A DNA stretch of 33,038 nt from Candidatus Omnitrophota bacterium (GCA_023247385.1 JAHFGO010000003.1:1-33038), one strand, 5' to 3'. Positions 2,741-29,969 are shown, counted from the first letter of the stretch. The notes: generated from the letters alone by a model not told the origin. Numbers and translations are program-made.

Positions 2741-3991
2741 TTATATCGACAGCAGCTTGATTTTCCTTAGCAACAACTCATAGGACTCGTTTATACCATA
2801 GCTAAAAAATATAATCAGTAGAGGTTCTACGAGCCATCTATGTCTTCCCTCTACGTAGAATAAGCTCTGCGTCAAAAAAATTGCCATGAAGATGAAAATT
2901 ATTAACCAAACGCTCCCTTTTATAACCTTTTCTCCAGACGCAAGCGAAAGGATTAAGCCTAAGATAGAAAAACCCAGTAAGATTGAATATAGATACCTGT
3001 AGATAATAAAATATGGCTTTGGATATATGATGCCGCTTTGTGGAGAAAACCACCAAAAATAATATATTTTCGTAATATACCGTTTTATAAAACCCAATGG
3101 GTCTTTTCGTATGAAATACATGGCTTCTTTCTCGAAGAAATTTTTTTGGCCAATTTCATCAAGCGCAAATACTTTTTTTCGAAACTCTTCTGGCCATAGT
3201 TCAATTATGGTCTTGCCTTCCTTATTAAATGACGTGCCGACTGCATACTTGTTATTTCCTCGCCACAGGTTCTCGCCGGTAGTTGAGACTATAAATATGA
3301 ATCTTTTATGAATGACATAATTTCTAATTATCCAAGGCGTTATGACAATAAACGCCGCGATCGCAAAGAATATGATAATCTTAAACTTTTCATGCAATGC
3401 CAGACGGGTTATAAACAAGATAAAATATAAACTCAAAAACGGTATGAGCGCCCATATAATGCCACGGCTTAGCGCGCCCAGACCAACCATCATTCCGAGT
3501 AACGATATATTTAAGATACTTGGTCTATCTTTAAATTTCAAAACCAATAACGCAGCGGTTGCTATCAAGAATGAATCTATGCTTAAAGGTATTAAATTGA
3601 ACACATCGTAATATATAAAGCCCGGGTGGAAGCTGACAATAATTGCCGACATAAAAGCCACTTTCTCATCAAATATAATCTTTGCTATCTTGAATATCAC
3701 GAGCGCTAAAAACATAGTAAAAAGTGACTGAGCTAACAACACTGCCAGATAACTATGGTTGGTCAGAATATATATACCTGCGCATAGAAAACTATATAAT
3801 GGCGCGTTGAGGGACCTATACGGAACATCGAAGAAATAAAACAAAAACCCCTTTCCAGATAACAGGTTATTAACTATGACCTCATATTCCCACGTCACTG
3901 GATGTATGTATGTCTTGAAAATTATTATTAAAGTCAGCCTGACTGCTAATGCCATGCTTAATATGATAAACAACTTATCTTTTGTAGTCAT
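2741..3991 (-). CDS. Polytopic GT-C type glycosyltransferase, ArnT/PMT_2-like (GT39/GT83-like)
   Basis: 416 aa with at least 9 strongly hydrophobic segments. The first loop after TM1 carries acidic residues followed by a PMT_2-like block (VTWEYEVIVNNLLSGKGF...APLYSFL). A later soluble loop reads NLWRGNNKYAVGTSFNKEG. It lies 9 nt downstream of a B12-radical SAM and ArnC-like GT2 pair. Confidence 0.55.
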   Translation of the reverse strand: MTTKDKLFIILSMALAVRLTLIIIFKTYIHPVTWEYEVIVNNLLSGKGFLFYFFDVPYRSLNAPLYSFLCAGIYILTNHSYLAVLLAQSLFTMFLALVIFKIAKIIFDEKVAFMSAIIVSFHPGFIYYDVFNLIPLSIDSFLIATAALLVLKFKDRPSILNISLLGMMVGLGALSRGIIWALIPFLSLYFILFITRLALHEKFKIIIFFAIAAFIVITPWIIRNYVIHKRFIFIVSTTGENLWRGNNKYAVGTSFNKEGKTIIELWPEEFRKKVFALDEIGQKNFFEKEAMYFIRKDPLGFIKRYITKIYYFWWFSPQSGIIYPKPYFIIYRYLYSILLGFSILGLILSLASGEKVIKGSVWLIIFIFMAIFLTQSLFYVEGRHRWLVEPLLIIFFSYGINESYELLLRKIKLLSI

Positions 3992-6375: not shown

Positions 6376-6398
6376 ATCCACCTCTCTCACAAGTAGCG

Positions 6399-7583
6399 CT
6401 AATATAAATCGATATCTGAATCACCATATGTCAAATACCAATTCTTTCTATCTTGAAGGAATGAACCATTTTTATTTATCATCCCCTCATTCAATAAATG
6501 TATAAGGAACCTATCATTAGATTTTATATTGATAAAACCTGACGTTCTGACAGTCCGTTGTATTACGGGACTTAAAGAATCGCATCTCACAAGATCTACC
6601 CTGCCATTAAAATCTTGAAGAGCCGTGTTGAGAAGAGAGACGCCGATATTCTTTTCCTTCGGATCAAAGAAGATATCAGAGATTATCCCTACTTTTAATC
6701 CGCCGAATCTGATGTTATCGCTCTTAACGTTAGCTTCTCGTATTACAGCATAGCCTCTTAAGCCGCCTTTTATCTCTGCGGTTAATATCTTATAGCGCCG
6801 ATATGGTTGATCTATAAATCTCCATTTCAGCATGCCCTTGTCTCTAGTCGCTATGCATGTGGATTGTTTTGAAGCCTCTAGCCAAAAACTATCAAACCCT
6901 TCATCGAAATTCACAGCTTCTGAAACCTCAACATTTTCATTCTTATGGAATCTATTCCAAAGATGCGATAATTTAAATATTGCATTTATTGTGACATGTA
7001 AAAATGGTCGCATAAGTTCCATATCAATGCTCTTTTCTAATATATTTTTAAAATTTAGCGGATATACGCTTCTATTGATAGCCCCCATGTCAAGGAAACC
7101 TGCCTTTTTGAATAGATCGTATGAGCGTTCATTTGTACCAGCCGCCATTACTATATCAATAAGGCCATTTAATTTTTTTAATGCGTGTTGAATTAAAGAG
7201 TGACCGATACCCATATTTCTGAAAAGGGGTAATATTATAAAATCCTGAAACCAACCGCCTTTATAAGTCTCTTGTCCAACTTTCAAATCTATCGGCATCA
7301 CGCAGATTTGACCAACCATTTTATCCCTGAACCGACAGATCCAAATAATAGGTTTCCACCTTACCATGGTTGGATTATCCAGATATTTCCAGTCCCAAAA
7401 CTTCTTCACCATTTCGCGCTTTTCGAATTTATCACGGTTGAACTGGTCTTTATATGCAACCATTAAAAAATCTATATATTCCTCTTTATCCGCAAGAGAT
7501 AGATTTTCAAATTCCACTTTTGGCTCATTATCGGATAATAAGAGTCCCTCAGTCCTTACAGAGTTCTTCTTATCTTCTGCCAT
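6399..7583 (-). CDS. GNAT-family N-acyltransferase with an additional C-terminal domain
   Basis: 394 aa with an ATG start. The GNAT motif A is LFRNMGIGHSLIQHALKKL, preceded by a beta-strand block GQICVMPIDLKV. About 200 further residues are of unrecognised fold. The gene overlaps the upstream CE4 gene by 28 nt. Confidence 0.6.
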   Translation of the reverse strand: MAEDKKNSVRTEGLLLSDNEPKVEFENLSLADKEEYIDFLMVAYKDQFNRDKFEKREMVKKFWDWKYLDNPTMVRWKPIIWICRFRDKMVGQICVMPIDLKVGQETYKGGWFQDFIILPLFRNMGIGHSLIQHALKKLNGLIDIVMAAGTNERSYDLFKKAGFLDMGAINRSVYPLNFKNILEKSIDMELMRPFLHVTINAIFKLSHLWNRFHKNENVEVSEAVNFDEGFDSFWLEASKQSTCIATRDKGMLKWRFIDQPYRRYKILTAEIKGGLRGYAVIREANVKSDNIRFGGLKVGIISDIFFDPKEKNIGVSLLNTALQDFNGRVDLVRCDSLSPVIQRTVRTSGFINIKSNDRFLIHLLNEGMINKNGSFLQDRKNWYLTYGDSDIDLY

Positions 7584-8368
7584 AGTTCATACCAATCATA
7601 GGCGCCTTCTAACTCTTTTGCAAACTCATATTTATCATCGAACCAGGATATGCGCGTTCGCCTCATCAGGTAGGGATCGCTCTCGATGGTATTAGAGCCG
7701 GCTATTGTGGTGAATGCTGCTTTATACCCTGCGGATTTCACCGCATCCACAGCACTTTTATCAAAAGACCCATAGCAACCAAATGGATATGCAAAAAGAT
7801 CTATTGTGGTCCTGAGATGATCTTCTAAGATGTTTTTTGATAGGCCCATCTCATTCTTCAGCTCATTTGTTTCTAGGCGATGCAGCTTCTTATGACTTAA
7901 AGAATGCGAACCGAAAGAGAATATGCCCATCGCTGTCAACTCCATGAGGTCATCCCAGTTAAGCCATTGCTCGCTCCTTCCGATAAAATTTACGGTTAAA
8001 AATATCGTCGCCCTAAACCCATATCGCGCTAAGATGGGCGCGGCATTAGTCAGATTGTCTTTAAAACCGTCATCGAATGTTATGCATATTGTTTTTGGAG
8101 GCATCTCTTTGTTTTCCTTTATGTTATCAATCATCTCGCCGCATGGTATGACAGAGTAACTATTTTCATTTAAGTATCTCATCTGTTCTTTAAAGAGCTC
8201 CTTGGGCGTTGTCATCTGATAGTTATCGTCTCCGATAAGGTCATCTGTTATCGAATGATAGGTCAACACACGGAATTCTCCCCTTGCGACATCTAAAATG
8301 GTTCGGAATGGATTAAAATGAAAGGCTATATTTGCTATTGTCTTTTTCAATGTCAGTTTTTTATCCAT
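7556..8368 (-). CDS. Polysaccharide deacetylase, NodB-homology / carbohydrate esterase 4 family
   Basis: 270 aa. NodB motif 1 is ICITFDDGFKDN, the metal-binding motif is FGSHSLSHKKL, and a later block is AYPFGCY. Its ATG directly abuts the upstream stop (TAGATG). Confidence 0.8.
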   Translation of the reverse strand: MDKKLTLKKTIANIAFHFNPFRTILDVARGEFRVLTYHSITDDLIGDDNYQMTTPKELFKEQMRYLNENSYSVIPCGEMIDNIKENKEMPPKTICITFDDGFKDNLTNAAPILARYGFRATIFLTVNFIGRSEQWLNWDDLMELTAMGIFSFGSHSLSHKKLHRLETNELKNEMGLSKNILEDHLRTTIDLFAYPFGCYGSFDKSAVDAVKSAGYKAAFTTIAGSNTIESDPYLMRRTRISWFDDKYEFAKELEGAYDWYELWQKIRRTL

Positions 8369-10225
8369 CTATATATCACCATTAAGATAATAGTAAATTA
8401 TTGCAAGATATTCGTGAACTATCCCCTTGATTTGCCGAAGGTCTATCTGTTTATGAAAGACGCCTCTTTTCACATGTGAATAAAATGAACTCTGCGGCAA
8501 AGGGGTGTATGTTACTTGTACATCTTTGGCGATCTTATCAAAGACGAGCGATACGCGCCGCATATGATAAGGAGAGCTGACCAATAAAATTTTTTTCCAT
8601 TTTTCTCTGTCTAAAATTTTTTTTGTAAATGCCACATTTTCATAGGTATTTCGCGCGGCATCCTCCAAGATGACAGCCCTTTCAGGCACACCCAATGATA
8701 TCGCCAGACCCTTCATCACCAGCGTCTCTTTAAAGACGTACATATAACCTGAGGAAAAGATCAAACGATCTGCATAACCTTTTTTGTACAATTCAACAGC
8801 ATACCCCACTCGCTCTTCATAGCCCTGGCCGGCCTTACCGGATTCTCCAACACCTCCTCCAAAGACAACGATACAATCTGCCTTCCGGGGTGCCTCTGAA
8901 ATATTTAACGGCTCGGCAATCGACCAGACTATGGGTGTACAAAATATCAGCAGATACATGCCGCCAAGAAGACTGGCTATCTTCAGTGCTCTTTTACGCG
9001 ATACTATATAAAATTTGAGAAAACGCTCCTTCCAGTCTGCGGAACTTTTGGTTTTCTTCGCAATAGCGTCTCCCATTAAATCGCCCATCTTCTCGATCCG
9101 CGCTGCCCAGCCATGCTTCTTTGCCGACTCTATCCGCTGCTCCCTCAATTCGCCAGCCTTGCCGTCAAGCACGCCTGATATCCTTTCTATAAACTCGTCA
9201 TGAGTTTTCCCAACCAGTACAATGTTATCATTCTCGTTATTAAAGTTGACAATTTCTGGCAAATTCGTAGATACTACAGGTTTGCCCATTGCATGATATT
9301 CATTTAATTTCGTGGGGAAGACGGTTGTAGTATAGCCGCTCACTTCATAAGGTATGATACAGACATCGAATTGATCTACATAATTTGGAAGAGTGGAAAA
9401 ATCTCTTTTTCCTAATAGATATATATTTGTGAGATTGCTTATCGCAGAGATATCCGCCTGTACAGGCCCAACTAGAACTATAGACCAGTCAGGATGAGAC
9501 TGGGCCATGAACTTTATTAAACCGAAATCCATATGCCTATGTATGCCGCCAACATACCCGATCACGGGCCGTTTTATATCTTTTATATCATCTGGAATAT
9601 CGGTGCCATCCTCCAGTACACTAAAGGTCTCTATATTTACTCCGAATGGGAATATATGCACATTCTTATTCAGGCCTTCGCACTTCTCTTTCAGGGCATT
9701 GCCCTGTGCAAATATCACGTCACTTTTCCTTATTAGTTCATCTTCTGTCTGGCGTATCTTTTTTGGATCATTTACCAATTCATAAAAATCTGCTATGCAG
9801 TAATAGACTAATAATTTCCTATCGATATCATTTATGATGTCGATAGCCGTGCCCGTAGGCAAGAACGTCCAGATGATAGGTTCATGAAATTCCATTATCT
9901 TCATCCATCGCCTTATAGGATTGATGAGCATATATCTATTTATATATCTAGCGATTTTAGAATATGGAAAAGGCAAAATTATCGGCGAGTACACATACAG
10001 ATTATTCATCTCCTCTCTAAAACCTCTTACGCTTTTAAACCAGTTGGCTATCCTCTTTTTGAGCCTCTGAATGTCAGTTAGGCTAGGTGGCCTGACGCCG
10101 GTGTTTTCAATAAATAAGACCCTATTGCCGTTTTTGGCAAAAGTTGACATTATCTCCTGATGGCCCTGCCATATAAAATCCCAATCGATCGAGGATATAC
10201 AAATTATGTCTTCGCCCTTTAGCAT
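8369..10225 (-). CDS. Fusion protein: N-terminal GT-B glycosyltransferase (GT4, TuaH-like), one TM helix, C-terminal DUF218 (YdcF/ElyC/SanA-like) domain
   Basis: 618 aa with an ATG at 10225. The N-terminus reads IICISSIDWDFIWQGHQEIMSTFAKNGNRVLFIEN and the acceptor/donor half reads VIGYVGG...FPTKLNEYHAMGKPVVSTNLPEI. The hydrophobic helix is ALKIASLLGGMYLLIFCTPIVWSI. The DUF218 blocks are ADCIVVFGGGVGESG, RLIFSSGY, NTYENV and ILLVSSPYHMRRV. Confidence 0.65.
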   Translation of the reverse strand: MLKGEDIICISSIDWDFIWQGHQEIMSTFAKNGNRVLFIENTGVRPPSLTDIQRLKKRIANWFKSVRGFREEMNNLYVYSPIILPFPYSKIARYINRYMLINPIRRWMKIMEFHEPIIWTFLPTGTAIDIINDIDRKLLVYYCIADFYELVNDPKKIRQTEDELIRKSDVIFAQGNALKEKCEGLNKNVHIFPFGVNIETFSVLEDGTDIPDDIKDIKRPVIGYVGGIHRHMDFGLIKFMAQSHPDWSIVLVGPVQADISAISNLTNIYLLGKRDFSTLPNYVDQFDVCIIPYEVSGYTTTVFPTKLNEYHAMGKPVVSTNLPEIVNFNNENDNIVLVGKTHDEFIERISGVLDGKAGELREQRIESAKKHGWAARIEKMGDLMGDAIAKKTKSSADWKERFLKFYIVSRKRALKIASLLGGMYLLIFCTPIVWSIAEPLNISEAPRKADCIVVFGGGVGESGKAGQGYEERVGYAVELYKKGYADRLIFSSGYMYVFKETLVMKGLAISLGVPERAVILEDAARNTYENVAFTKKILDREKWKKILLVSSPYHMRRVSLVFDKIAKDVQVTYTPLPQSSFYSHVKRGVFHKQIDLRQIKGIVHEYLAIIYYYLNGDI

Positions 10226-10252
10226 ATAATTTTTTCCATATATTAATACTAA

Positions 10253-10281
10253 ATTATATAAGAAAGATATTAGGAAGGCAA
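10253..10281 (-). promoter_or_regulatory. Candidate sigma70-type promoter for the downstream (lower-coordinate) half of the cluster
   Basis: On the minus strand the sequence is TTGCCT (10281-10276), a 17-nt spacer, then TATAAT (10258-10253). The -10 element lies about 28 nt upstream of the ATG at 10225. It sits inside the 124-nt AT-rich gap, one of only two real intergenic gaps in the window. Confidence 0.35.
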
Positions 10282-10349
10282 CTACAATCTTACATCATAA
10301 ATATCGCTATATTTAGCTTTGAAAGACTTAGTGGGAAGCAATATCGCTC

Positions 10350-10862
10350 TTAATCGAATTCGCTTTTTTTCCCAAAAATGATAAGCTTCATCATTATAAA
10401 CAGCCTTGCTATCAATAAAACTATATGTCGTTTAAGATAATATCTTCCGCTTTTGAATGTGATTTGTCTATTGTTAAGCAATCTTTTAAGCCGATTGTCA
10501 ATCATCTCTTTAGCATTGTAGCGTTCGAGAATCTGCTGCATAGAAAGTCCGTCTCTAGCGTCGTATATCTCCCTTAAAATCCTGATCCTCCGCGCTGTTT
10601 CGCTTAAACATATAAAACTGAAATAACAGTAAGATAGCGACGCATAGATCAAGAGATTTACCAAAAACATAGCTATGCGGTCGGTTAGCGCCATCGCCTC
10701 AATTCTAAAAAAATAAGATTGGTATATCAACAAGCCAAATGCGCCGGCACCGACGCCGACGAAAACGGATCTCAACAAGTTGGTCTTCAAAATATATCGG
10801 AAACTTGCGATCTGGAACAGCATATTTATTATAAGACAGGCTATGGGAACGAACGCGACCAC
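10350..10862 (-). CDS. Uncharacterised small membrane protein (3-4 TM) with a winged-helix-like soluble segment; paralog of 10864..11385
   Basis: 170 aa. The GTG start at 10862 is preceded by AGGAGG with a 5-nt spacing. Three N-terminal hydrophobic helices are followed by ARRIRILREIYDARDGLSMQQILERYNAKEMIDNRLKRLLNNRQITFKSGRYYLKRH and then a hydrophobic tail IVLLIARLFIMMKLIIFG. I do not recognise the family. Confidence 0.6.
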   Translation of the reverse strand: MVAFVPIACLIINMLFQIASFRYILKTNLLRSVFVGVGAGAFGLLIYQSYFFRIEAMALTDRIAMFLVNLLIYASLSYCYFSFICLSETARRIRILREIYDARDGLSMQQILERYNAKEMIDNRLKRLLNNRQITFKSGRYYLKRHIVLLIARLFIMMKLIIFGKKSEFD

Positions 10863-10863
10863 C

Positions 10864-11385
10864 TCATCCTCCTTTCGGCATGTTTAGTATTCTACGATAA
10901 AATATAAAAACGCGTTCTGTATAATTGCCTTTTTTGGTCAATCTATAAATATCCCCACTTTTATAGACCAATCCGTCTTTCATCAAATCCATGATTCTCG
11001 TCTTTATTAACATATCGTCCGTCATCATCTTATACAACTCTTCCTTGGCCAAGCCGTGCGATCCCGCATCAGCGATGTGTTGTATAATAAGTAGGGACGG
11101 ACTGTCTGCCTCTATAGCTGGATAATTAAATATATAGAAAAGACCTAGGGAAAGATAAAGCAGCGATATGTGAAGGCATTCTAAAAGATTTTTAGGAAAA
11201 AATAAATTGATGACGAGGGTAGATCTTGATGCAATCCATAAAAGGATGAGCGACAAAATCAAATTCAATAAAAATAGACGGAACAAGCTATTCGTCGGTT
11301 GTTTCGGCGGATATATCCTCCATCTGGCGATATGGATAGTAAAGAATATGAAAAATATAAGTATGCCCCATATGAGGATTAGCAT
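10864..11385 (-). CDS. Uncharacterised small membrane protein (3 TM) with a winged-helix-like soluble segment; paralog of 10350..10862
   Basis: 173 aa. The ATG overlaps the upstream SDR stop by 7 nt. Three hydrophobic helices are followed by SPSLLIIQHIADAGSHGLAKEELYKMMTDDMLIKTRIMDLMKDGLVYKSGDIYRLTKKG. This aligns by eye with the equivalent segment of the next gene (GL...e.l......mi..R...L......fKSG.YyL.k). Confidence 0.6.
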   Translation of the reverse strand: MLILIWGILIFFIFFTIHIARWRIYPPKQPTNSLFRLFLLNLILSLILLWIASRSTLVINLFFPKNLLECLHISLLYLSLGLFYIFNYPAIEADSPSLLIIQHIADAGSHGLAKEELYKMMTDDMLIKTRIMDLMKDGLVYKSGDIYRLTKKGNYTERVFIFYRRILNMPKGG

Positions 11386-12302
11386 CTCACCGCTTCAAAA
11401 CTTTGAATAGTATATCGAATGCCTTCTTCAAGAGAGGTCTTTGCCTTAAAACCCAATACTCGTTGCGCATTTTTTGTATCGTTATATAATCTGCTGTTAT
11501 TATTGTTAAGAGCATTATCTGCAAATCTTATTTGAGATGAAGAACGTGTTTCTTTGACGATCAGTTTTGCCAATTCTGCTAAAGTTGTCACCCTGCCGTT
11601 GCATATCGAGAAATGTCTGAAAGTATGAGAATGGGAATTCCAGAGATATCTCATAGTCAGATAGACGGCCTCCACAGCATCCTTATAATATATAAAATCA
11701 AACTGTTGGCGAGGGGTGGTTATGATGATTTCCTTATTATCCAACGATCTTGACATAATGTTCGGAAGCGCCTTCTCTGGGTTATCATATGCCGACCCAT
11801 AAACGTCGGAGAAACGAAGTGCTATCGTCCTGATTGAGTAATCTTTAGCATATCGAAAACATAAAAGTTCAGATATAAATTTAGAAATACCGTACATGTT
11901 CGTGATCTCTCTAAGGTCACTCTTTAAATCATTAGCTTCCCAGTCAAAGTTGACCTCTCGGGTACTGCTTATAATCAACCATGGTCTTTTTTGAGAAAGG
12001 CGTATACTTTCCAAAATGTTCAATGTCCCAATGACATTCAAGTCAATGCATTCATAAGGCATTTCTCTGGCCAGACTCACCCTGCTGAGTGCTGCTAAAT
12101 GAATGACGCCATCCATCTCAGAACAGGCCTCTACCAGTTGTCTCAGATTATTGATATCGCCTTTAATGAATTTCATTGTATCTATATCATTTCTTTTTTG
12201 AATATCGAACAGATACAAGTCATATTCGCTATATAATGACAGCAACTCGATCAGATGCATGCCGATAAAACCGCAACCGCCTGTGATGAGAATCTTTTTC
12301 AT
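11379..12302 (-). CDS. NAD(P)-dependent epimerase/dehydratase/reductase (extended SDR) acting on an NDP-sugar
   Basis: Motifs: KKILITGGCGFIGMHL Rossmann, SST...YGISK catalytic triad, LRFSDVYG. I prefer the ATG at 12302 (MKKILITGG), 13 nt after the aminotransferase stop. The ORF-track start at 12350 is a TTG that would add 16 residues and overlap the upstream gene by 35 nt. Confidence 0.75.
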   Translation of the reverse strand: MKKILITGGCGFIGMHLIELLSLYSEYDLYLFDIQKRNDIDTMKFIKGDINNLRQLVEACSEMDGVIHLAALSRVSLAREMPYECIDLNVIGTLNILESIRLSQKRPWLIISSTREVNFDWEANDLKSDLREITNMYGISKFISELLCFRYAKDYSIRTIALRFSDVYGSAYDNPEKALPNIMSRSLDNKEIIITTPRQQFDFIYYKDAVEAVYLTMRYLWNSHSHTFRHFSICNGRVTTLAELAKLIVKETRSSSQIRFADNALNNNNSRLYNDTKNAQRVLGFKAKTSLEEGIRYTIQSFEAVRC

Positions 12303-12315
12303 AATTTCAGCTGTC

Positions 12316-13422
12316 TCATTTTTTATGATAAAATTTTTTGATTGCAGCAATCACCACATCTACTGCGGAATCTTCCATTTCAGGATATATCGGAAGTGAT
12401 AATACGGTCTTGGATACATATTCGGTGCGGGGCAGATTAAACTTGCCCAGACCTAATGCCTTCTGAAGGTGGACGGGTTTGCGCCAGTGCACAAACACCT
12501 CTATCCCTTTCCGAGCTAAATGCTCAACGAGATCATCTCTTCGCTCAGCGCATATACAATATGAACTATATACATCATAAAATTCGCCATCTGACGGTGG
12601 CGGCGGAAGCCTTAATTCCGAGATTGAGAATAAGCCTTGGTGGTATTTCGAGGCTATCGTGCGTCTTTTTTCAATCCACTTTTTTAAATATTTATATTTA
12701 ATGTTGAGGACAGCTGCGTGTAGATTATCGAGGCGGCTATTGAACCCAAACGCTTCTATCTCATCCTTTGTCTTCTGTCCATGGTCCCTTAAAAGGCGAA
12801 TCTTTTCAGCAAAACTTTCATCATCTGTTGCCAGGAAACCTCCGTCTCCCGGCGCGCCGACTGTTTTAATTGGATGCAGGCTGAAACAGCCGATACCGAA
12901 AGTCCCTGTCTTCTTGCCCTTATATGATGCGCCGAGTGCTTGACAGCTGTCTTCTATAACTACCAGATCGTGTCTTTTGGCAATCTCCATTATCTTTGAC
13001 ATCTCGCAGGCTCGGCCATTAAGATGAACGGGAATGATGCCACAGGTCCTATTGGTGACAGCCTCTTCTATCCGGTTGACATCCATATTATAATCTTCTC
13101 CTATGTCCACTAGGACTGGCTCAAGGCCACAGTGCTTGATGGCGGCTATCGTGGCGATGAAGGTATGGCTGACCGTGATGATCTCGCTAGCCGGTTCGAA
13201 TCTCTGGGCATGGATTGCTAAAAACAGGCTGTCCGTTCCGCTGTTCAACCCTATGATGCAGCGGCATCCAAGGTAATTGGCCATATTCTTCTCAAATTTT
13301 TTCACGTCATCTCTTAAAATAAAACTGCCGGAAGAGAAGACGGCCTTGATTGCGGAAGAGAGATCTGTTTCCATATTTGCATACTGCTTAGGTAAATCGA
13401 TGTAAGGCACTTTGAACTTCAT
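12316..13422 (-). CDS. PLP-dependent NDP-sugar aminotransferase, DegT/DnrJ/EryC1/StrS (ArnB-like) family
   Basis: 368 aa with an ATG start. Family blocks: GLNSGTDSLFLA, IIPVHLNGRACEM, VIEDSCQALGASYKGKKTGTFG and FSLHPIKTVGAPGDGGF, which carries the Schiff-base Lys context. RLLRDHG is also present. Confidence 0.85.
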   Translation of the reverse strand: MKFKVPYIDLPKQYANMETDLSSAIKAVFSSGSFILRDDVKKFEKNMANYLGCRCIIGLNSGTDSLFLAIHAQRFEPASEIITVSHTFIATIAAIKHCGLEPVLVDIGEDYNMDVNRIEEAVTNRTCGIIPVHLNGRACEMSKIMEIAKRHDLVVIEDSCQALGASYKGKKTGTFGIGCFSLHPIKTVGAPGDGGFLATDDESFAEKIRLLRDHGQKTKDEIEAFGFNSRLDNLHAAVLNIKYKYLKKWIEKRRTIASKYHQGLFSISELRLPPPPSDGEFYDVYSSYCICAERRDDLVEHLARKGIEVFVHWRKPVHLQKALGLGKFNLPRTEYVSKTVLSLPIYPEMEDSAVDVVIAAIKKFYHKK

Positions 13423-13434
13423 CGGGTTTATCTC

Positions 13435-14277
13435 TTAAGACAATATATCGCCTTTCTTTAATCTTGTGTCGGCATTCACTAAAATAACACCATCATTGGT
13501 GCTTATAACATATCTTCCGTCGCGAGTGACCCCCAAGACTTCCCCGGCCCTCTTTCCCGGATATGCGCGTCTAAATTGTATCCTCTCTCGATTTTTGAAA
13601 CCGAAGGCATTAGGCATCGGATCGACGAGAGCATTTATAAATCGATTCAACTGGAAGCTGGTCTTCATCCAGTCTATCCTGCTATCAGCAGGCGTTCTCT
13701 TGGCCAGATAGGTTGAAAAGCCACGTATCTGTTTCCTTCGGTATGCGCACTTATTCTCTATCTGCCGAACTGCTGTGAGTAACAATTTTTTGCCGCATGC
13801 GATCAGCCTCTTTGAGATGGTGCCATAATCATCGTCTCGCGCAAATTCGATGCTATCCTGCAGAACAATATCTCCATCATCTATATTTTCATTCATAAAA
13901 TGGACTGTGATGCCCATCTCTCTCTCGCCATTTATGATTGCCCAATTCACAGGGTGACGGCCCCTATATTTTGGTAATATTGAAGTATGTAGATTGACAG
14001 CCCCAATTTTAGGAATGCCCAATATAGACAGTTTTATTATTTCGGGGTAGGCAATAAAGATCATTAGATCAGGCTCGATCTTCTTTATTCTGCCTGCCAG
14101 AGAATGTATATCATCCGTCACAATCGTCTCTATCCCTAACCGGCCCAATGCCCTTTTAGAGATCTCGAGATAATTATGTCTATGGAGCACCAGCAATTCC
14201 GGCCTGTATCCGAACTTGCAGAGGTTCTTTACATTCTCTATAAAGGGCTCTGACGAACCTCCCATGACTATCTTCAA
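13435..14277 (-). CDS. Formyltransferase, ArnA N-terminal-domain / Fmt-like (sugar N-formyltransferase candidate)
   Basis: [48 protein letters not shown] matches remembered ArnA [45 protein letters not shown]...[10 protein letters not shown] matches ArnA RRTPDDSFLEW...AVADPWPGAF. I place the start at the TTG at 14277 (MKIVMGGS), which has GGAGGA 7 nt upstream and lies 4 nt after the upstream stop. The ORF-track start at 14304 is another TTG that overlaps the upstream gene. Confidence 0.8.
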   Translation of the reverse strand: [280 protein letters not shown]

Positions 14278-14281
14278 TGCC

Positions 14282-14971
14282 TTATCCTCCACGCAGGATA
14301 TCAAAGACGGATTTTAGAATGCCGATTATATTTTTTATTCTAAATGCCTTGGAATGGCCCTTTTTTCTATCCAATAAATATATACCTACCTCTATATAGC
14401 CATAGCCTCTTTTTAACAATTTTACGAGCGCCTCAGCCTGATAGGCAAAACTATCCGTCTTTATTGCGATGGAACTTATGATCGAAGTTTTGTGAAGGAC
14501 CATTCCATTATAATATTTCAATCTAAGGCCCGCCGCCAGATTCACCAACTGCACAAAGCCCTTTGATATGATCTGTCTCCATAAAGGCCTGGAGCGCTCG
14601 TTCAAATGAAACGGTATCACCATATCCGCTTTATTTCTTAAATCGAAAGTGTCTTCGAATGCCTTTTGCTCAACATCATTATCACCTGTGACCAACATCA
14701 GGTATTCCATTCTGGCCATCTTGATGCCAGATTTATAGACGTAACCAAGGTTCATAGGTCGAGGATGGTGCATGGCTCTTACTTTGGGGTTAGTGCGCGC
14801 TATTTCATCGACGATTTTACCGGTGTCATCCGTTGAGCCATCATTGAATATTATCATTTCATAATCCGCAAATCTTCCATCTATCGCCCGTTTTACTTTA
14901 TCGTATGTCTGAAGCAGGTTATCTTCCTCATTCAAAGCCGTTATGATGATCGATATCGTATCTCGGTTCAT
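14282..14971 (-). CDS. GT2 glycosyltransferase, Dpm1/ArnC-like catalytic domain without TM helices (paralog of 19541..20311)
   Basis: 229 aa with an ATG start. Blocks: ISIIITALNEEDNL, IIFNDGSTDDTGKIV, LVTGDNDVE, MVIPFHLNERSRPLWRQIISKGF. No hydrophobic C-terminal helices are present. It aligns by eye with the 256-aa GT2 at 19541..20311. Confidence 0.75.
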   Translation of the reverse strand: MNRDTISIIITALNEEDNLLQTYDKVKRAIDGRFADYEMIIFNDGSTDDTGKIVDEIARTNPKVRAMHHPRPMNLGYVYKSGIKMARMEYLMLVTGDNDVEQKAFEDTFDLRNKADMVIPFHLNERSRPLWRQIISKGFVQLVNLAAGLRLKYYNGMVLHKTSIISSIAIKTDSFAYQAEALVKLLKRGYGYIEVGIYLLDRKKGHSKAFRIKNIIGILKSVFDILRGG

Positions 14972-19540: not shown

Positions 19541-20311
19541 TTATAAATCTCCTCGCCGCCTAATAGCCGTAGAAGAATCGTCTGAGTAACGAATCTCGGC
19601 GTCTTTCTTATTCCTGAAATAAAAATCTTTCACTAGATGCAGATATCCATTTATCACATTTAACAAAGACGGGAATGTGACTGCTTTCGAAGGGCCGTGC
19701 CCTCTCGATCCAACCCGATACGGCACCTCGGCAAAAAGATATCCTTTCTTTACGGCCCTTATCAATATATCGGTTTGAAAGAAAAATCCGTTTGACCTGT
19801 AGTCCATCTCCTTTAATATGGATTTTCGATAAAGATTAGTTCCGTTGGTGTAATTGAAATTTACCAGAAAGCTGGTGTTGACAATGAATCGATAGACGAG
19901 AGAAAGCACGTTTCTGAAAAGAGGCCTTGCCGCTTTATTAAATATGAATGGTATGACTATATCTACCTGTTCAAGTAGTTTGTAATAGCGGAATATCTCA
20001 TTGGGATCGTTCTCGTTATCGCCGGGAAGCATCACTATGATATCTCCGAAGGCGCTATCAAGGCCATCCCAAAACGATGTGCCGACGCCTTTAGGCATCT
20101 CGTGGATGACCATCCGTATTCGACGATCGACTTTTGCCGCATCCCTCACCACCGTCTCTGTGTTATCGCTGCTTCCGTCATTTATGACTATGACCTCGCC
20201 ATTGATATCAAACCTACGAAAAGCATCCAGTGCATTTTTGATGGCGTCCGCAATATTCTTTTCTTCATTGAGTGCCGGCATAATAACCGACACCTCGACC
20301 TTATTTTGCAT
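19541..20311 (-). CDS. GT2 glycosyltransferase, Dpm1/ArnC-like catalytic domain without TM helices (paralog of 14282..14971)
   Basis: 256 aa with an ATG start. Blocks: VSVIMPALNEEKNI, VIVINDGSSDNTETVV, MLPGDNENDP, IVIPFIFNKAARPLFRNVLSLVY. There is no C-terminal membrane helix. Confidence 0.75.
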   Translation of the reverse strand: MQNKVEVSVIMPALNEEKNIADAIKNALDAFRRFDINGEVIVINDGSSDNTETVVRDAAKVDRRIRMVIHEMPKGVGTSFWDGLDSAFGDIIVMLPGDNENDPNEIFRYYKLLEQVDIVIPFIFNKAARPLFRNVLSLVYRFIVNTSFLVNFNYTNGTNLYRKSILKEMDYRSNGFFFQTDILIRAVKKGYLFAEVPYRVGSRGHGPSKAVTFPSLLNVINGYLHLVKDFYFRNKKDAEIRYSDDSSTAIRRRGDL

Positions 20312-22326: not shown

Positions 22327-22340
22327 GATCGCATGCCCTC

Positions 22341-23970: not shown

Positions 23971-23972
23971 AT

Positions 23973-25514: not shown

Positions 25515-26506
25515 TTAGAAAGGTATTGAAACCATTCCTTCGTAGCTTCTCTGATCTTTTCAGGTGTCCATACCGGAGCGCTTCTCCAGTATTCGATCTT
25601 ATCAAGAATCGTTTTAACGCCTTCTTCAAAGGCAACCTTAGGAACCCAACCCAATATCCGCTTTATCTTAGCGATGTGGGCATGAGTGCGGTCCGGCTCT
25701 CCCGGCCTCTTCGGAATATGGACAATGTCACCGCCTAAAAGCTTCGTCAAATAATTGATGCTGTAAGTATTTCCTGATCCGACGTTCATCGTCTCCTGGT
25801 CGCACGTGGATTCAGCAGCCATTAAAAATGCGTTTACCGCATCCGTCACATAGACAAAATCTCTTGTCTGGGTGCCGTCGCCAACAACGGTGAACGGCTT
25901 ATTATTGAGTTTCTGAGCCAAAAATACCCCGAATACGGCGCCATAGGTACCTGATGTCCGCGAGCGCGGGCCGTACACATTAAATAGCCTTAAAGAGATG
26001 ACAGGCAATTTATATACCTGCCCCCAGTGAAGGATCGTCTCTTCTCCCAGATATTTCGTCAGCGCATATGGGTACTGAGGCTTGATGGGGGCTGTTTCCG
26101 CTGTGGGATAAACGTCCGGTATGCCATAGCAAGACGACGATGCAGCGTAAACAAGCCTATCGACTCCGGCTAATCGCGATGCCTCAGCCACACACATGGT
26201 ACCGATGACATTGGAGTTATAATAGATAGATGGATTCACAATAGACGGAACTATATCTGCTAAGGCGGCAATATGAAATACTACGTCGATGCCTTTAAAA
26301 TGCGCCTTTATCTTATCCAGATGAGATATATCCTCTTTGACAATGGTAAGATTTACATTATCCTTCTGATGCGCCAGATTCTCAAGGTTCCCAGTCGAGT
26401 AATTATCTATCACGGTAACCAAATGGCCTTTCTCCAACAACGCATCAACTAAATGGCTGCCGATAAATCCAGCCCCTCCAGTAACCAAACATCTCTCTCC
26501 TCTCAT
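25511..26506 (-). CDS. NAD-dependent NDP-sugar epimerase/dehydratase (extended SDR, WbpP / UDP-hexose 4-epimerase-like)
   Basis: 331 aa. The ATG forms an ATGA overlap with the upstream stop. Motifs: VTGGAGFIGSHL, ASSSCYG...YALTKYLGE (S/Y/K triad), LRLFNVYGPRS, VGDGTQTRDFVYVTD. Confidence 0.8.
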   Translation of the reverse strand: MRGERCLVTGGAGFIGSHLVDALLEKGHLVTVIDNYSTGNLENLAHQKDNVNLTIVKEDISHLDKIKAHFKGIDVVFHIAALADIVPSIVNPSIYYNSNVIGTMCVAEASRLAGVDRLVYAASSSCYGIPDVYPTAETAPIKPQYPYALTKYLGEETILHWGQVYKLPVISLRLFNVYGPRSRTSGTYGAVFGVFLAQKLNNKPFTVVGDGTQTRDFVYVTDAVNAFLMAAESTCDQETMNVGSGNTYSINYLTKLLGGDIVHIPKRPGEPDRTHAHIAKIKRILGWVPKVAFEEGVKTILDKIEYWRSAPVWTPEKIREATKEWFQYLSK

Positions 26507-28236
26507 CTCTCCACCCCTTGAAAAACCAACTCTTTAAGTTTATACCTAAGAGGATACTCACCTGGCGGAGGCAGGATAGGAAAATCCTTATGCAAAAGGT
26601 CCTTATAAGAAATATCCGGATAGTGAGTTAGTATCTCGCCGTTGACAAAGAGCTCGTTATCGCGATACCGCACAACAATAAATTCTTTCGGATCGAGCAT
26701 CTCCTCCCCCAAATTTGTAATCCTCTGACAGGTGGATGGCTTTTCGTCCCCAGATCTTCTTAACAACTCCCATTCCCCGAGAGCAATAGCTTTATATTTA
26801 AGAAATCGAACCGGGTCTTTTGAGTCGGTATACAATACATTAAGCGAAAACTCAAGGCTGTGGAACGATCTCACGCCTGAATTTTTTAGCGGTGTGTCAT
26901 CGATAGCGTCAATCAAAAATGTCGCATTCGGCGGAAGGCTTGGAAATCGCATGGTAAAAGCATTCCAGAATTTCTTTTCGCTATCCCATGCCTTGAAGTA
27001 TAGGTCTATATTGATATTATTGAACAAAACTCCCGCCGCTAAACAAAATGCTATAAATAAATTCATCCATCTCGATCTAATGCTGGGTGCATAGAAAATA
27101 CAATATAGAAAATAGATCAGCCCACCTATGAGAACAGCGTCACCAAACTGCAGGATTATACCGTGCCTATTCTGAAAACCGATGCCGGGTGCGCGGTCCG
27201 TGTATAAATATAGCAATATAGGGGGTATTAAAAGAACGGCGGCTAAAATAAAAATATCCCGCGTTGAAATCCATGCCGCCTTTAAGGATAATCGAACTGG
27301 CTTAAATATATCGGCTCTATTCAGTAGATATAAGCATAGAAAGAACGCAACCAGCCCTAATGACATTGACCATGATGTTGAATAGCGAAAGATGATCCCG
27401 TTCTTCAAATATGAAATCCAGTGATATGACATAAGCATCGCCAAAAGGAATAGGATTTTTCTTCCGTCGAGGAAAAAGCGCACATCTTGCGCATATATAC
27501 CGGAGCAAACGCCGAAAGGTTTATAGGCCATCTTATAGAAGCTTATAGGTAGACACAGCAGAAAGAATGGAAACCATGTCATCAGGGTTTTGTTTAGTAA
27601 AGCTTTATGGCCGAGCGGCTTTTTGGAAAGTATATACCAGATAAAAAAAAGCCTGGCCGGTTCCAGCGCAACGGCCCCTTCAATTAAAACATAATGGGAG
27701 ATGCCGGATAGAATAAGAGCGATTGTCAAGAAAACCCATCTCGCGTCGCGCGCCAGTGCCCTTTCGGTAAGATAAAATGATATTATCGTAAACATGACCC
27801 CCAGACGATATGGCAGGTTGCCATAAAATGGCAATGCGGTATGAATAGGAAAAATTATGAATGCAATAGCCGCAAAGAATGCAAAAAAACGTTTAGTTTT
27901 GAACAGGTTGTTCAATAATGTATAAAGATAAACGGATGAGACGATCTGTATAAAAATGCTTGCGGAATTCCATAGAGGATAAGCGTAGTCGATCTTCTTG
28001 TGAAGCGAATAAAAATAGTATTGAAATATGCCAAGAGGTACTCTCCTAAGCTGCGTAAACCCCATGTCGAGAAATTGCTTCAATCTGCCGGTTGAATATG
28101 CAGATAGGATCCAGCAATTATCGTCCCAGAAGATATCCCGCAGGAACCATAATCGTGCGACGCTAAGGATCCCTACCACAATTATCAGTGGCAAAAAGAA
28201 ATTTCTATCTCTATCACAATAGCGTTCTTCTGCCAT
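26503..28236 (-). CDS. Uncharacterised polytopic membrane protein with a C-terminal soluble domain (tandem paralog B); possible GT-C-type glycosyltransferase or polymerase
   Basis: 577 aa. The ATG shares one base with the upstream stop (TAATG). There are about 11-13 hydrophobic segments. The first loop after TM1 carries RDIFWDDNCWILSAYSTG. A roughly 150-aa non-hydrophobic C-terminus follows (AWDSEKKFWNAF...DPKEFIVVRYRDNELFVNGEIL). I do not recognise the family. Confidence 0.5.
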   Translation of the reverse strand: MAEERYCDRDRNFFLPLIIVVGILSVARLWFLRDIFWDDNCWILSAYSTGRLKQFLDMGFTQLRRVPLGIFQYYFYSLHKKIDYAYPLWNSASIFIQIVSSVYLYTLLNNLFKTKRFFAFFAAIAFIIFPIHTALPFYGNLPYRLGVMFTIISFYLTERALARDARWVFLTIALILSGISHYVLIEGAVALEPARLFFIWYILSKKPLGHKALLNKTLMTWFPFFLLCLPISFYKMAYKPFGVCSGIYAQDVRFFLDGRKILFLLAMLMSYHWISYLKNGIIFRYSTSWSMSLGLVAFFLCLYLLNRADIFKPVRLSLKAAWISTRDIFILAAVLLIPPILLYLYTDRAPGIGFQNRHGIILQFGDAVLIGGLIYFLYCIFYAPSIRSRWMNLFIAFCLAAGVLFNNINIDLYFKAWDSEKKFWNAFTMRFPSLPPNATFLIDAIDDTPLKNSGVRSFHSLEFSLNVLYTDSKDPVRFLKYKAIALGEWELLRRSGDEKPSTCQRITNLGEEMLDPKEFIVVRYRDNELFVNGEILTHYPDISYKDLLHKDFPILPPPGEYPLRYKLKELVFQGVER

Positions 28237-29969
28237 TAGCCCACCAACTCTTTAAGTTTATATCTAAGGGGATATTCTCCCGGCACAGGCAGCCTCGGGA
28301 AATCTTTATTTAAAAGCCCCTTATAGGGAATATCCGGATAACGATCGAGGATCTCACGATTGACAAGGAGCTCCTCGTCCCGATATCGGACTATGATAAA
28401 TTCCTTCGGATCCAAAATATCTTTCCCCCAATTCGTAATTCTTTCATAGATTGATGAATCTTGGATTCTTTTAGACTTTCGTATCAGATCCCACTCATCG
28501 AAGGCAACAGCTTTATGTTTGAGAAACTGTGACGCATCTTTTGAACAAGTATATAAAACATTCAAGGAAAACTCAAGGCTATGAAATGATCTCAGTCCTG
28601 AGTTTTTTAGCGGTGTATCGTCGACAGCGTCTATCAAGAATACGCCTTTTTCAGGTATGCTCGGAAATTTTTTGGTAAAGGCGTTCCAGAACCCTTTCTC
28701 GCTTTCCCATGCCTTGAAATAGAGATCCAGATTCACATTATTGAACAATACCCCACCCCCCAGACAAAGCGCTGTAAATAGATTGAGCCATCTTGATCTG
28801 ACGGCTGATGTATATAGTGTAGAATATAAAAGATATATTAGACCACCGATGAGAACGGCGTCACCGAACTGCAAAATTATACCATGCCTATTCGGGAAAC
28901 CGATGCCTGGTGCCCGGTCAGTAGCCAGATACAGCAAAATGGGGGGCAATAAGAGAAAGAGCGCTAAAATAAAGACGTCCCGAACCGATCTCCATGCGGC
29001 TTTCATGGTTAAATTAAGCGGTTTAAATATATCGGCCCGATTTAGTAGATATACGCATAGAATAAATGCGACCAATCCTAATGATACAGACCATGATGTC
29101 GAATAGTGAAAAACGATCCCTGTTTTCAAGTATGAGATCCAATGGTATGATATGAGCATACCTAAAAGAAATAATATCGTATGCCAATTTAAAAAGAACC
29201 GCACATTCTGCGCATATGTGCCTGCATATATTCCAAAGGGTTTATAGAACGTCTTGTAGAGACTTAGCGGCAGGCATATTAGAAAAAAAGGAAGCCAGAT
29301 CATCAGGCTTTGCTTTAGCGAAGCCTTCGTATCGACCATCTTCGGACGAAGGATATGCCATATCAGAAATAACCGCGCCGGTTCCAGCACAACCGTCCCT
29401 TCTATCAATACATAATGAGAGATGGCCGATAGCGTGAGAGCGACACCAAGAAGCAACATCTTCGTATCGCGCGCCAACGCCCTTTGAGTCAAATAAAAAG
29501 AGAGCATGCTAAACATAATTCCTAACCTATATGGGAGGTTGCTATAATACGGCACGGCAGTATGAATCGGAAAAACTATGAATGCGACGCTGACGAAAAA
29601 GGCCAAAATGCCCTTTGCCTTAAAAAGATTTTTCATAAGCATATAAAGAAAGACTGAAGAGGCAACCTCGATAAAGATGCTGATGGAATTCCATATCGCA
29701 TAGGTATAGTCTATATGTTTATGTAGCATAAAGAAATAATATAGAAATATGCCAAAGGGCGCTCTTCTGAGCTGCATAAATCCTGTATCGAGAAACTCTT
29801 TCAGGCTTCCTGTTGAATATGCGGATAATATCCAGCAATTATCATCCCAGAAGATATCGCGCAAAAACCATATCCTCCCGAAACTGAGAATCCCAGTGAG
29901 GATAATAAGCAACAGGAAGAAATTATTATCCCGTTCGTTTAAAGCCGATGTGCTCATTTTGGAAATCAT
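28236..29969 (-). CDS. Uncharacterised polytopic membrane protein with a C-terminal soluble domain (tandem paralog A); possible GT-C-type glycosyltransferase or polymerase
   Basis: 577 aa with an ATG at 29969; an alternative ATG lies four codons downstream. It is colinear with 26503..28236, and roughly two-thirds of residues look identical by eye. Shared blocks: RDIFWDDNCWILSAYSTG, ISHYVLIEG, SYHWISYLK, TDRAPGIGF.NRHGIILQFGDAVLIGGLIY, DDTPLKNSG.RSFHSLEFSLNVLYT, GEYPLRYKLKELV. Confidence 0.5.
   Translation of the reverse strand: MISKMSTSALNERDNNFFLLLIILTGILSFGRIWFLRDIFWDDNCWILSAYSTGSLKEFLDTGFMQLRRAPFGIFLYYFFMLHKHIDYTYAIWNSISIFIEVASSVFLYMLMKNLFKAKGILAFFVSVAFIVFPIHTAVPYYSNLPYRLGIMFSMLSFYLTQRALARDTKMLLLGVALTLSAISHYVLIEGTVVLEPARLFLIWHILRPKMVDTKASLKQSLMIWLPFFLICLPLSLYKTFYKPFGIYAGTYAQNVRFFLNWHTILFLLGMLISYHWISYLKTGIVFHYSTSWSVSLGLVAFILCVYLLNRADIFKPLNLTMKAAWRSVRDVFILALFLLLPPILLYLATDRAPGIGFPNRHGIILQFGDAVLIGGLIYLLYSTLYTSAVRSRWLNLFTALCLGGGVLFNNVNLDLYFKAWESEKGFWNAFTKKFPSIPEKGVFLIDAVDDTPLKNSGLRSFHSLEFSLNVLYTCSKDASQFLKHKAVAFDEWDLIRKSKRIQDSSIYERITNWGKDILDPKEFIIVRYRDEELLVNREILDRYPDIPYKGLLNKDFPRLPVPGEYPLRYKLKELVG

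Follow-up and report, generated by a model that had tools for sequence, protein, structure and literature searches.

Two adjacent genes, A and B, at positions 10,350 to 11,385 of a 33,038-nucleotide stretch of Candidatus Omnitrophota DNA (GCA_023247385.1 JAHFGO010000003.1:1-33038; the whole stretch is hereafter called the window) encode small membrane proteins, each combining three transmembrane (TM) helices with a soluble domain predicted to fold as a winged helix. A and B represent a large, strictly paired and unannotated family. The explanation we prefer, to which we give roughly an even chance of being right, is that the two proteins form a heterodimer (A·B) that serves as the inner-membrane partner and activator of a TM-less polyprenyl-phosphate glycosyltransferase of family GT2, within a three-component system for extracytoplasmic (cell-surface) glycosylation. 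The enzyme in question would be the 256-residue GT2 encoded at 19541-20311, with its paralog at 14282-14971 as a probable second one. The architecture of three TM helices plus a winged helix, together with obligate heteropairing, is unprecedented for an accessory membrane subunit of a GT2 enzyme.

Both genes lie on the minus strand, as do all large open reading frames (ORFs) of the window. Gene A (10864..11385) starts with ATG and encodes 173 residues, and gene B (10350..10862) starts with GTG and encodes 170. Read from the sequence, the TGA stop of A occupies 10866-10864, a single spacer base follows at 10863, and the GTG of B occupies 10862-10860. The Shine-Dalgarno element of B, AGGAGG at 10868..10873 on the same strand, lies 5 nt ahead of the GTG and overlaps the end of gene A. 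An earlier sequence-only reading of this DNA had described two genes of these lengths, 1 nt apart, the second preceded by AGGAGG at 5 nt from a GTG start, and it was accurate in each of these particulars. On the upstream side, the ATG of A overlaps by 7 nt the stop of an epimerase gene (11379..12350, minus strand), which places the pair inside an operon.

Scans of A and B against Pfam and NCBIfam returned no family match, and none of 98 family members (51 A, 47 B) scored above threshold, so the sequence-only reading had good reason not to recognise the family. A profile search found at least 349 A-family clusters at 90% identity, all of them unnamed or ‘hypothetical’. For B, an exhaustive hidden Markov model (HMM) search recovered 1,898 representatives (at 50% identity) within an E-value limit of 1e-3, of which 316 also pass a limit of 1e-30. 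B proteins are uniformly about 175 residues long, and members of the two families overall span 160-190 residues. They come from at least 10 phyla, mostly uncultivated, with sources in the Nitrospirota/Thermodesulfovibrionia, Desulfobacterota, Omnitrophota, Elusimicrobiota, Verrucomicrobiota (Chthoniobacterales), Nitrospinota, Latescibacterota and Scalindua. Single metagenome-assembled genomes (MAGs) assigned to Levybacteria, a bacterium of the candidate phyla radiation (L015), and to Woesearchaeota, a DPANN archaeon (L022), also carry the genes, the latter with a gene content resembling that of the Scalindua locus L001. The locus in these two MAGs may reflect a binning artefact or horizontal transfer.

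Pairing was followed in two sets of loci. The first comprised 43 loci from species-representative genomes, spanning at least 10 phyla, and 7 from metagenomes; A is followed by B in all 50, and only in L008 are the two not adjacent, being separated there by a YfhO gene (7071-10322). The second, independent set comprised 80 metagenome loci chosen via B. Here, A lies directly upstream of B in 77, the exceptions being L067 and L094, which are contig ends, and L054 (1-2592), where YfhO stands ahead of B and the contig runs out before an A gene is reached; we counted this as a second case of YfhO between the pair. At L076 (4947-5822), a class I methyltransferase gene and a 51-residue ORF for a fragment of B separate the two genes. 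The pair is thus kept in homologous loci, about 130 of them independent of one another, which is beyond chance. No fusion of A or B to another domain, GT2 included, was seen among family members. A 336-residue protein (P0324), with a C-terminal segment recognised by eye as YraN/UPF0102-like, was judged to be a gene-call fusion unrelated to glycosylation.

By sequence comparison, A and B are old, diverged paralogs. BLASTP aligns them with 23% identity over 86 residues (E = 0.005), and hhalign joins the two family profiles over 106 columns (probability 76%, E = 2.2e-5), pairing the same segments that the sequence-only reading had aligned. The A-family HMM matches B of the window (E = 2e-7), and the B-family HMM matches A-family members in many loci (E values from 1e-4 to 4e-7). 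In both family alignments, conservation is concentrated at the cytoplasmic membrane boundary, and the periplasmic loops are variable. In A, conservation is high where TM1 ends, in loop 1 and through the C-terminal half of TM3; next, at the boundary between TM3 and the cytoplasm, comes the invariant motif T-Y-S-A-x-E-A-D-S-P-S-L. In B, N13 and Q17 of TM1 are conserved, and then Y-x-Y-F-H-F-x-N-L-G-E-T-A-R-R-I-R-I-L-R-E.

We ran AlphaFold2 on A and B separately, using the family alignments, and obtained confident models, with a mean predicted local distance difference test score of 86.3 for A and 84.5 for B. The model of A contains helices at residues 2-24, 30-53 and 67-91, three shorter helices (96-106, 114-120 and 123-136), strands at 140-143 and 146-149, and a last helix at 151-167. 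We assign these elements to three TM helices (residues 2-91; 11113..11382, minus strand, as for all segments given here), a net acidic winged-helix domain (residues 96-149; 10939..11100) and a C-terminal amphipathic basic helix (residues 151-167; 10885..10935). The model of B contains helices at 2-23, 29-54 and 59-101, shorter ones at 108-114 and 118-130, strands at 134-137 and 140-143, and a last helix at 146-163; the corresponding parts are three TM helices (residues 2-85; 10608..10859), the juxtamembrane RRIRILRE helix with a net basic winged-helix domain (residues 88-143; 10434..10601) and a C-terminal hydrophobic or amphipathic helix (residues 146-163; 10374..10427). At the membrane boundary of A, the conserved E-A-D-S-P stretch forms a break after TM3, beyond which the soluble domain begins with its first helix. 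B has no such break, and its TM3 and the corresponding helix form a single one of 43 residues.

Foldseek searches of the PDB aligned only the soluble parts of A and B, to classical winged-helix domains, and every E value was above 0.08. Among these matches are MexR (1.7 Å root-mean-square deviation over 66 columns), the DNA-binding domain of CggR (2.3 Å over 76) and MotA (2.8 Å over 77), with DtxR, YodB, Sso10a and the winged-helix dimerisation domain of O-methyltransferases as further neighbours. No whole-chain structural relative of A or B was found in the PDB by this search. At the fold level, then, the soluble domains are predicted to be winged helices. The three N-terminal hydrophobic helices and the winged-helix spacing noticed in the sequence-only reading are both borne out by the models, the former as three TM helices in each protein and the latter as a compact fold of three helices and a β-hairpin.

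The charge of the loops suggests how the proteins sit in the membrane. Loop 1 has a mean charge of +3.4 in A and +1.7 in B, and loop 2 is about neutral in both (-0.4 in A). By the positive-inside rule, the N terminus would be outside, loop 1 inside, loop 2 outside and the winged helix in the cytoplasm. In some B homologs, loop 1 contains insertions rich in Arg and Lys, consistent with a cytoplasmic position of this loop. Residues 151-173 of A have a mean charge of +4.5 across the family, and its C-terminal helix probably lies at the membrane interface. The winged helices themselves have mean charges of -1.2 (A) and +3.2 (B), and their third helices of -0.4 and +1.9; the charge in B would be compatible with a DNA-contacting surface, though it derives in part from the membrane-facing RRIR motif, and the charge in A would not. 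An acidic domain in A and a basic one in B, taken with the motifs at the membrane boundary, would fit heterodimerisation and protein docking better than DNA binding.

The evidence that ties the pair to a GT2 enzyme is the gene neighbourhood. We clustered the neighbours within ±10 kb of A and B in 47 non-redundant loci, annotated the cluster representatives, and ran an HMM of the TM-less GT2 subfamily on all ORFs, calling a member at ≥199 bits with full-length coverage. This subfamily is the commonest neighbour of A and B, present in 34 of the 47 loci, and it was also found in 14 of 20 metagenome loci with at least 5 kb on both sides. Its gene abuts A in six loci (L020, L023, L028, L031, L033, L040), with a 4-nt overlap in the last four, and abuts B in seven (L038, L039, L041, L042, L044, L046, L049). 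Direct contact with A or B is thus seen in at least 13 loci and in both gene orders.

Both GT2 proteins of the window belong to this subfamily. The proposed partner, of 256 residues (19541..20311, minus strand), scores 376.8 bits against the HMM, and the 229-residue protein (14282..14971, minus strand), which lies in a block of Arn-like genes, scores 219.8 bits and has a Pfam match. Neither has a TM segment. The larger protein is of the ArnC/DPM1/GtrB type and matches Pfam Glycos_transf_2; the NCBIfam models for ArnC (1.7e-15), PpgS and AglJ match it under their cutoffs. Its relatives in the PDB are ArnC (9e-12), PfDPMS (7e-10) and GtrB, and the likeness covers the catalytic domain only; the C-terminal TM helices of ArnC, P. 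furiosus DPMS and GtrB are absent from the TM-less subfamily. In the window, the two GT2 genes sit 2.9 and 8.2 kb upstream of A and B, in the same operon direction. The sequence-only reading had found it suggestive that two small membrane proteins accompany two such enzymes. This argument fails, since related loci usually have one TM-less GT2 per A and B pair and the count in the window is coincidental. Its underlying proposal, that A and B anchor or activate TM-less GT2 proteins, is the best supported of its three: the subfamily, which includes both GT2s of the window, is the commonest neighbour of the pair and often abuts it, and there is the precedent of GacI and GacJ described below.

The wider neighbourhood is that of a three-component system, in which a cytoplasmic GT2 would make a polyprenyl-phosphate sugar, the lipid-linked sugar would be flipped, and a periplasmic GT-C enzyme would transfer the sugar to an acceptor. 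Proteins of GT-C type are the next commonest neighbours after the TM-less GT2, and at least 14 loci have one immediately beside the pair. We found a conserved gene order that reads HldE-like – SIS – SPASM-type radical S-adenosylmethionine (SAM) enzyme – E1α – E1β – TM-less GT2 (about 257 residues) – SPASM radical-SAM – (TIM-barrel or B12-radical-SAM) – A – B – GT-C-type membrane protein, the last slot being filled by YfhO, PMT_2, DUF2079 or a family-less type of about 590 residues. In the window, the counterpart of the GT2 in this module is the 256-residue enzyme at 19541-20311, and both a polyprenyl-phosphate GT2 synthase and a polytopic transferase of GT-C type are present. A verrucomicrobial variant reads HldE – E1α/β – methyltransferase – alcohol dehydrogenase – A – B – TM-less GT2 – … – YfhO::GT2 fusion, with no radical-SAM genes. 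Because these loci keep A and B all the same, the link of the pair is not to the radical-SAM enzymes.

We propose the following arrangement. The two three-helix bundles of A and B would pair in the membrane, with the invariant acidic E-A-D of A (E92, D94) and the invariant basic R-R-x-R of B (R91, R92, R94), which lie at the same membrane boundary, complementing each other. The cytoplasmic boundary, where conservation is highest, is also the place at which a cytoplasmic GT2 would encounter the phosphate of its lipid acceptor; there, the conserved surface of A·B at the cytoplasmic leaflet would bind the polyprenyl-phosphate head group. The winged helices would act as protein-protein adaptors: they would dimerise and would dock the soluble GT2, and they might do the latter also for tailoring enzymes of the lipid-linked sugar. 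Docking would lower the Km for the lipid acceptor and raise turnover. A contribution of A·B to flipping of the product is possible as well. TM-less polyprenyl-phosphate glycosyltransferases need access to their lipid acceptor, and A and B, if this proposal is true, would supply a route to it.

There is precedent for such an arrangement. GacJ, a DUF2304 protein of 113 residues with three TM helices, co-purifies with the cytoplasmic GT2 GacI; it lowers the Km of GacI for undecaprenyl phosphate from 18.7 to 1.1 µM (∼17-fold) and raises Vmax ∼340-fold, and its M. tuberculosis homolog Rv3632 stimulates PpgS (10.1101/180810). A and B resemble GacJ and Rv3632 in having three TM helices and in being encoded beside, or transcribed together with, a TM-less DPM1/ArnC-like GT2 in a synthase/flippase/GT-C system. 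They differ in being ∼60 residues longer, the extra length comprising the cytoplasmic winged helix and the C-terminal amphipathic helix, and, whereas DUF2304 is sometimes fused to homologs of GacI, we saw no GT2 fusion of A or B. Neither A nor B of the window matches Pfam DUF2304 (PF10066, gathering score 25.5 bits). Weak matches occur in 7 of 51 A-family members (best E = 0.009) and in none of 47 B-family members. In one A-family protein (P0066; 13.1 bits, E = 0.12), residues 8-103 are collinear with positions 5-101 of the 106 in the model, that is, over the whole three-TM region. We treat the DUF2304 similarity as a lead from sequence comparison and not as family membership. A tblastn search of the GT2 against plasmids found GT2s in Azospirillum, haloarchaea and Nonomuraea, none with a DUF2304 neighbour.

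A second parallel comes from eukaryotes. DPM2 and DPM3 are two small membrane proteins that tether and stabilise the TM-less DPM1, and a cytoplasmic segment of DPM3 holds DPM1. As in our proposal for A and B, two different small membrane proteins serve one TM-less catalytic subunit. However, DPM2 and DPM3 have two TM helices each, are not paralogous to one another, and use a coiled coil (in DPM3), in contrast to the three TM helices and winged helix of A and B. No match to Pfam DPM2 or DPM3 was found in A, B or the 98 family members. The closest parallels for the soluble domains are winged helices that make protein contacts, namely the dimerisation domains of O-methyltransferases (PF08100/PF21212) and the activation domain of MotA, which lead the Foldseek matches of B (3dp7, MpaG', SibL and MotA); three of the 47 B-family proteins also give weak Dimerisation2-like matches in Pfam (best E = 0.0023). 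These domains belong to soluble proteins, and their likeness to A and B is at the fold level only (E > 0.08). If A and B are the equivalent of GacJ or of DPM2 and DPM3, they would represent a third, structurally distinct solution, in which a winged helix acts as a membrane-proximal protein adaptor.

Several observations weigh against A·B as a GT2 partner. Neither GacJ, Rv3632 nor DPM2 and DPM3 contains a winged helix, and GacJ is the product of a single gene, unlike the diverged pair considered here. The DUF2304 similarity is far under threshold (13 versus 25.5 bits) and could reflect a shared three-TM composition. Four loci with full flanks (L001, L005, L012 and L013) have no TM-less GT2 within 8-10 kb; in each of them, YfhO lies on one side of the pair and a B12-radical-SAM gene on the other, and the sole GT2 within reach in L001 and L012 carries TM helices of its own. 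Finally, neither the 33-kb window nor most of the related loci contain a recognisable Wzx, GtrA, SMR, MATE or ABC candidate for the flippase, and this speaks at the same time for a different role of the pair.

In that role, A·B would itself be a heterodimeric flippase, or a scramblase-like facilitator, for the polyprenyl-phosphate sugar, filling the slot held elsewhere by GtrA, ArnE/ArnF, Rv3789 or MATE proteins. We regard this as possible if unlikely. Three-component systems require a flippase, and the families of small proteins used differ between systems (PMC11127046). ArnE/ArnF, GtrA and Rv3789 are likewise small polytopic proteins of the same kind of pathway; ArnE and ArnF are adjacent paralogs that work as a heterodimer, and A and B stand at the end of an Arn-like block. 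The pair lies between GT2 and GT-C genes in the operon, often abutting the latter, with YfhO between A and B in L008 and, as counted above, in L054. Polar residues are conserved in TM1 (N13 and Q17 of B, H/Q18 of A). The pair also persists in loci whose one visible GT2 carries TM helices itself (L001, L012 and L022), and it stands beside YfhO in the four loci where a TM-less GT2 is out of range. If A·B does flip, the finding would name a missing flippase for a step that is unidentified in most bacteria.

The known flippases differ from A and B, however, in having four TM helices rather than three and no soluble domain, and in belonging to the SMR/DMT or GtrA families. No match to GtrA, EamA/SMR, Multi_Drug_Res or MATE was found for the window proteins at E ≤ 10 or for the 98 family members at E ≤ 1. 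Conservation in A and B falls at the cytoplasmic boundary and is poor in the halves and loops on the periplasmic side, and the winged helix has no obvious role in flipping. Moreover, about 8 of the 47 loci have a separate flippase-like gene, mostly directly beside the pair: LPG_synthase_TM in L001 (8597-9583), L021, L034, L040, L041, L045 (10876-11991) and L014 (945-1952), where it is near or beside A and B, and an EamA-like gene next to them in L029. A and B are therefore not simply the flippase slot. A flippase for the system of the window could also be encoded elsewhere. The ArnE/F-like flippase of the sequence-only reading thus retains in its favour that most loci have no other candidate, and is set back by the missing SMR, EamA and GtrA similarity, the separate genes and the side of the membrane that is conserved. 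LPG_synthase_TM, which is MprF-flippase-like, may be a lipid-linked-sugar flippase in these systems; it also occurs beside a GT2 on an Azospirillum plasmid (L052).

A somewhat slimmer chance goes to A·B as an accessory or scaffold subunit, either belonging to the GT-C transferase (YfhO, PMT_2 or a 577-residue type described below) or serving as a platform on which the lipid-linked sugar is held for cytoplasmic tailoring enzymes, such as B12-radical-SAM and SPASM radical-SAM enzymes or methyltransferases. The GT-C genes that adjoin the pair, and the YfhO genes inserted into it, would be accounted for in this way, as would the B12-radical-SAM gene that abuts the pair in L003/L027, L005, L007, L011, L012, L013, L015 and L023. 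Weak matches to HemN_C, a winged-helix-like domain found at the C terminus of a radical-SAM enzyme, occur in 8 of 51 A-family members. Against a specific subunit role, the GT-C partners come from at least four unrelated-looking families; the verrucomicrobial loci keep A and B without radical-SAM genes; and the pair in the window abuts neither a GT-C nor a radical-SAM gene.

More doubtful still is a synthase-coupled translocator, in which the winged helices would dock and activate the GT2 while A·B also passes the polyprenyl-phosphate sugar across the membrane to the GT-C enzyme. If true, this would be the first family of polyprenyl-phosphate-sugar flippases with a cytoplasmic winged-helix adaptor, and the first physical coupling of synthesis and flipping.

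The last alternative, also put forward in the sequence-only reading, has A and B regulating transcription from the membrane, as tethered winged-helix proteins that would act on the promoter region downstream of B (10226-10349). They might, for example, sense lipid-linked intermediates. This alternative can appeal to the fold, whose nearest structural neighbours include MarR and the DNA-binding domains of MexR, DtxR and CggR, to the basic winged helix of B, with invariant R124 and R127 in its third helix, and to a -10/-35-like match in the gap (10281..10253), but we consider it very improbable, given that the winged helix of A is acidic with conserved Asp residues in its third helix, that a few residues in A and no linker at all in B separate the domain from TM3, leaving little room for DNA, that the pair is operon-internal in the ∼130 loci, that in most loci of the neighbourhood analysis the next gene directly follows B, so that the 124-nt gap is not conserved, and that promoter-like sites in the region (8) do not exceed the shuffled expectation (6.1 ± 2.3) and the inverted repeats of the gap are AT-rich and unremarkable. 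No Pfam DNA-binding family scored over threshold in A, B or the 98 family members; the best helix-turn-helix matches of the window proteins were HTH_45 (E = 0.05; 14 bits against a cutoff of 25.5) and MCM_C (E = 0.16), and sequence-profile searches of the PDB with A and B returned Sso10a alone (E = 0.44). DNA binding by either protein is unlikely.

The neighbours also led us to consider another kind of winged helix, the PqqD-like recognition element for ribosomally synthesised and post-translationally modified peptides (RiPPs), since SPASM radical-SAM genes lie nearby. We rejected it: the elements of A and B run helix-helix-helix-hairpin, no RiPP-recognition element is among the Foldseek matches listed, and A and B of verrucomicrobial loci occur without radical-SAM genes.

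The window as a whole is one big glycan-biosynthesis cluster. Its contents include GT1, GT2 and PMT_2 glycosyltransferases, radical-SAM enzymes of B12 and SPASM type, E1α/β thiamine-diphosphate enzymes, an HldE-like kinase/nucleotidyltransferase, an SIS isomerase, DegT, a formyltransferase and epimerases. One GT2, encoded at 5425-6390, does bear TM segments, and one of the SPASM radical-SAM genes lies at 17418-18512. Positions 19541-25514 form the conserved module, which is also found in L007, L008, L009, L011, L018, L033 and L048 and is apparently undescribed. Its gene content suggests that it makes a heptose-derived sugar, carbon-extended or branched, that is tailored by radical-SAM enzymes. 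A and B are a sharp genomic marker for this unusual, radical-SAM-rich pathway.

Between the module and the pair, positions 11379-14971 hold the Arn-like block, with the 229-residue GT2, a formyltransferase with N- and C-domains, a DegT aminotransferase and an epimerase/dehydratase. The block is missing from most related loci and looks like an insertion that brought the cluster a second branch, for a lipid-linked amino sugar. We also considered a specific link of A and B to this block and set it aside, as related loci place the pair after the HldE-SIS-radical-SAM-E1α/β-GT2-radical-SAM module and mostly lack Arn-like genes.

Several genes of the window could act on the acceptor side. A polytopic PMT_2 protein at 2741..3991 (minus strand; Pfam PMT_2, 3e-10) is a candidate GT-C glycosyltransferase for this step. 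Two tandem polytopic paralogs of 577 residues, 70% identical to each other, are encoded at 26503..29969 on the minus strand (26503-28236 and 28236-29969). They have no Pfam match even at E ≤ 1. Proteins of this type, often in tandem, follow A-B(-B12-radical-SAM) in L005, L009, L011, L012 and L030, and may be periplasmic transferases of an unrecognised GT-C-like family. The Chthoniobacterales loci L041 (16080-19286), L039, L042, L044 and L049 encode fusions of an N-terminal YfhO-like polytopic domain with a C-terminal DPM1-like GT2 domain, of ∼1,050-1,140 residues, the one in L049 ending at 761 residues with the contig. In the manner of a Rosetta stone, these fusions tie the synthase step of the system to its GT-C step.

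The first gene past the 124-nt gap that follows B (8369-10225) encodes a 618-residue GT1-type glycosyltransferase with a C-terminal DUF218. At the far end, positions 30991-33024 encode a 677-residue protein that has no Pfam domain and matches, under its cutoff, NCBIfam TIGR04326 (surface carbohydrate biosynthesis, O_ant_LIC13510 type; 3.9e-65). Finally, the window is unusually dense in radical-SAM genes, with five in all (two B12-binding and three SPASM; 4001-5431, 14978-16474, 17418-19540 and 22341-23408), which suggests C-methylation or epimerisation chemistry on sugars.

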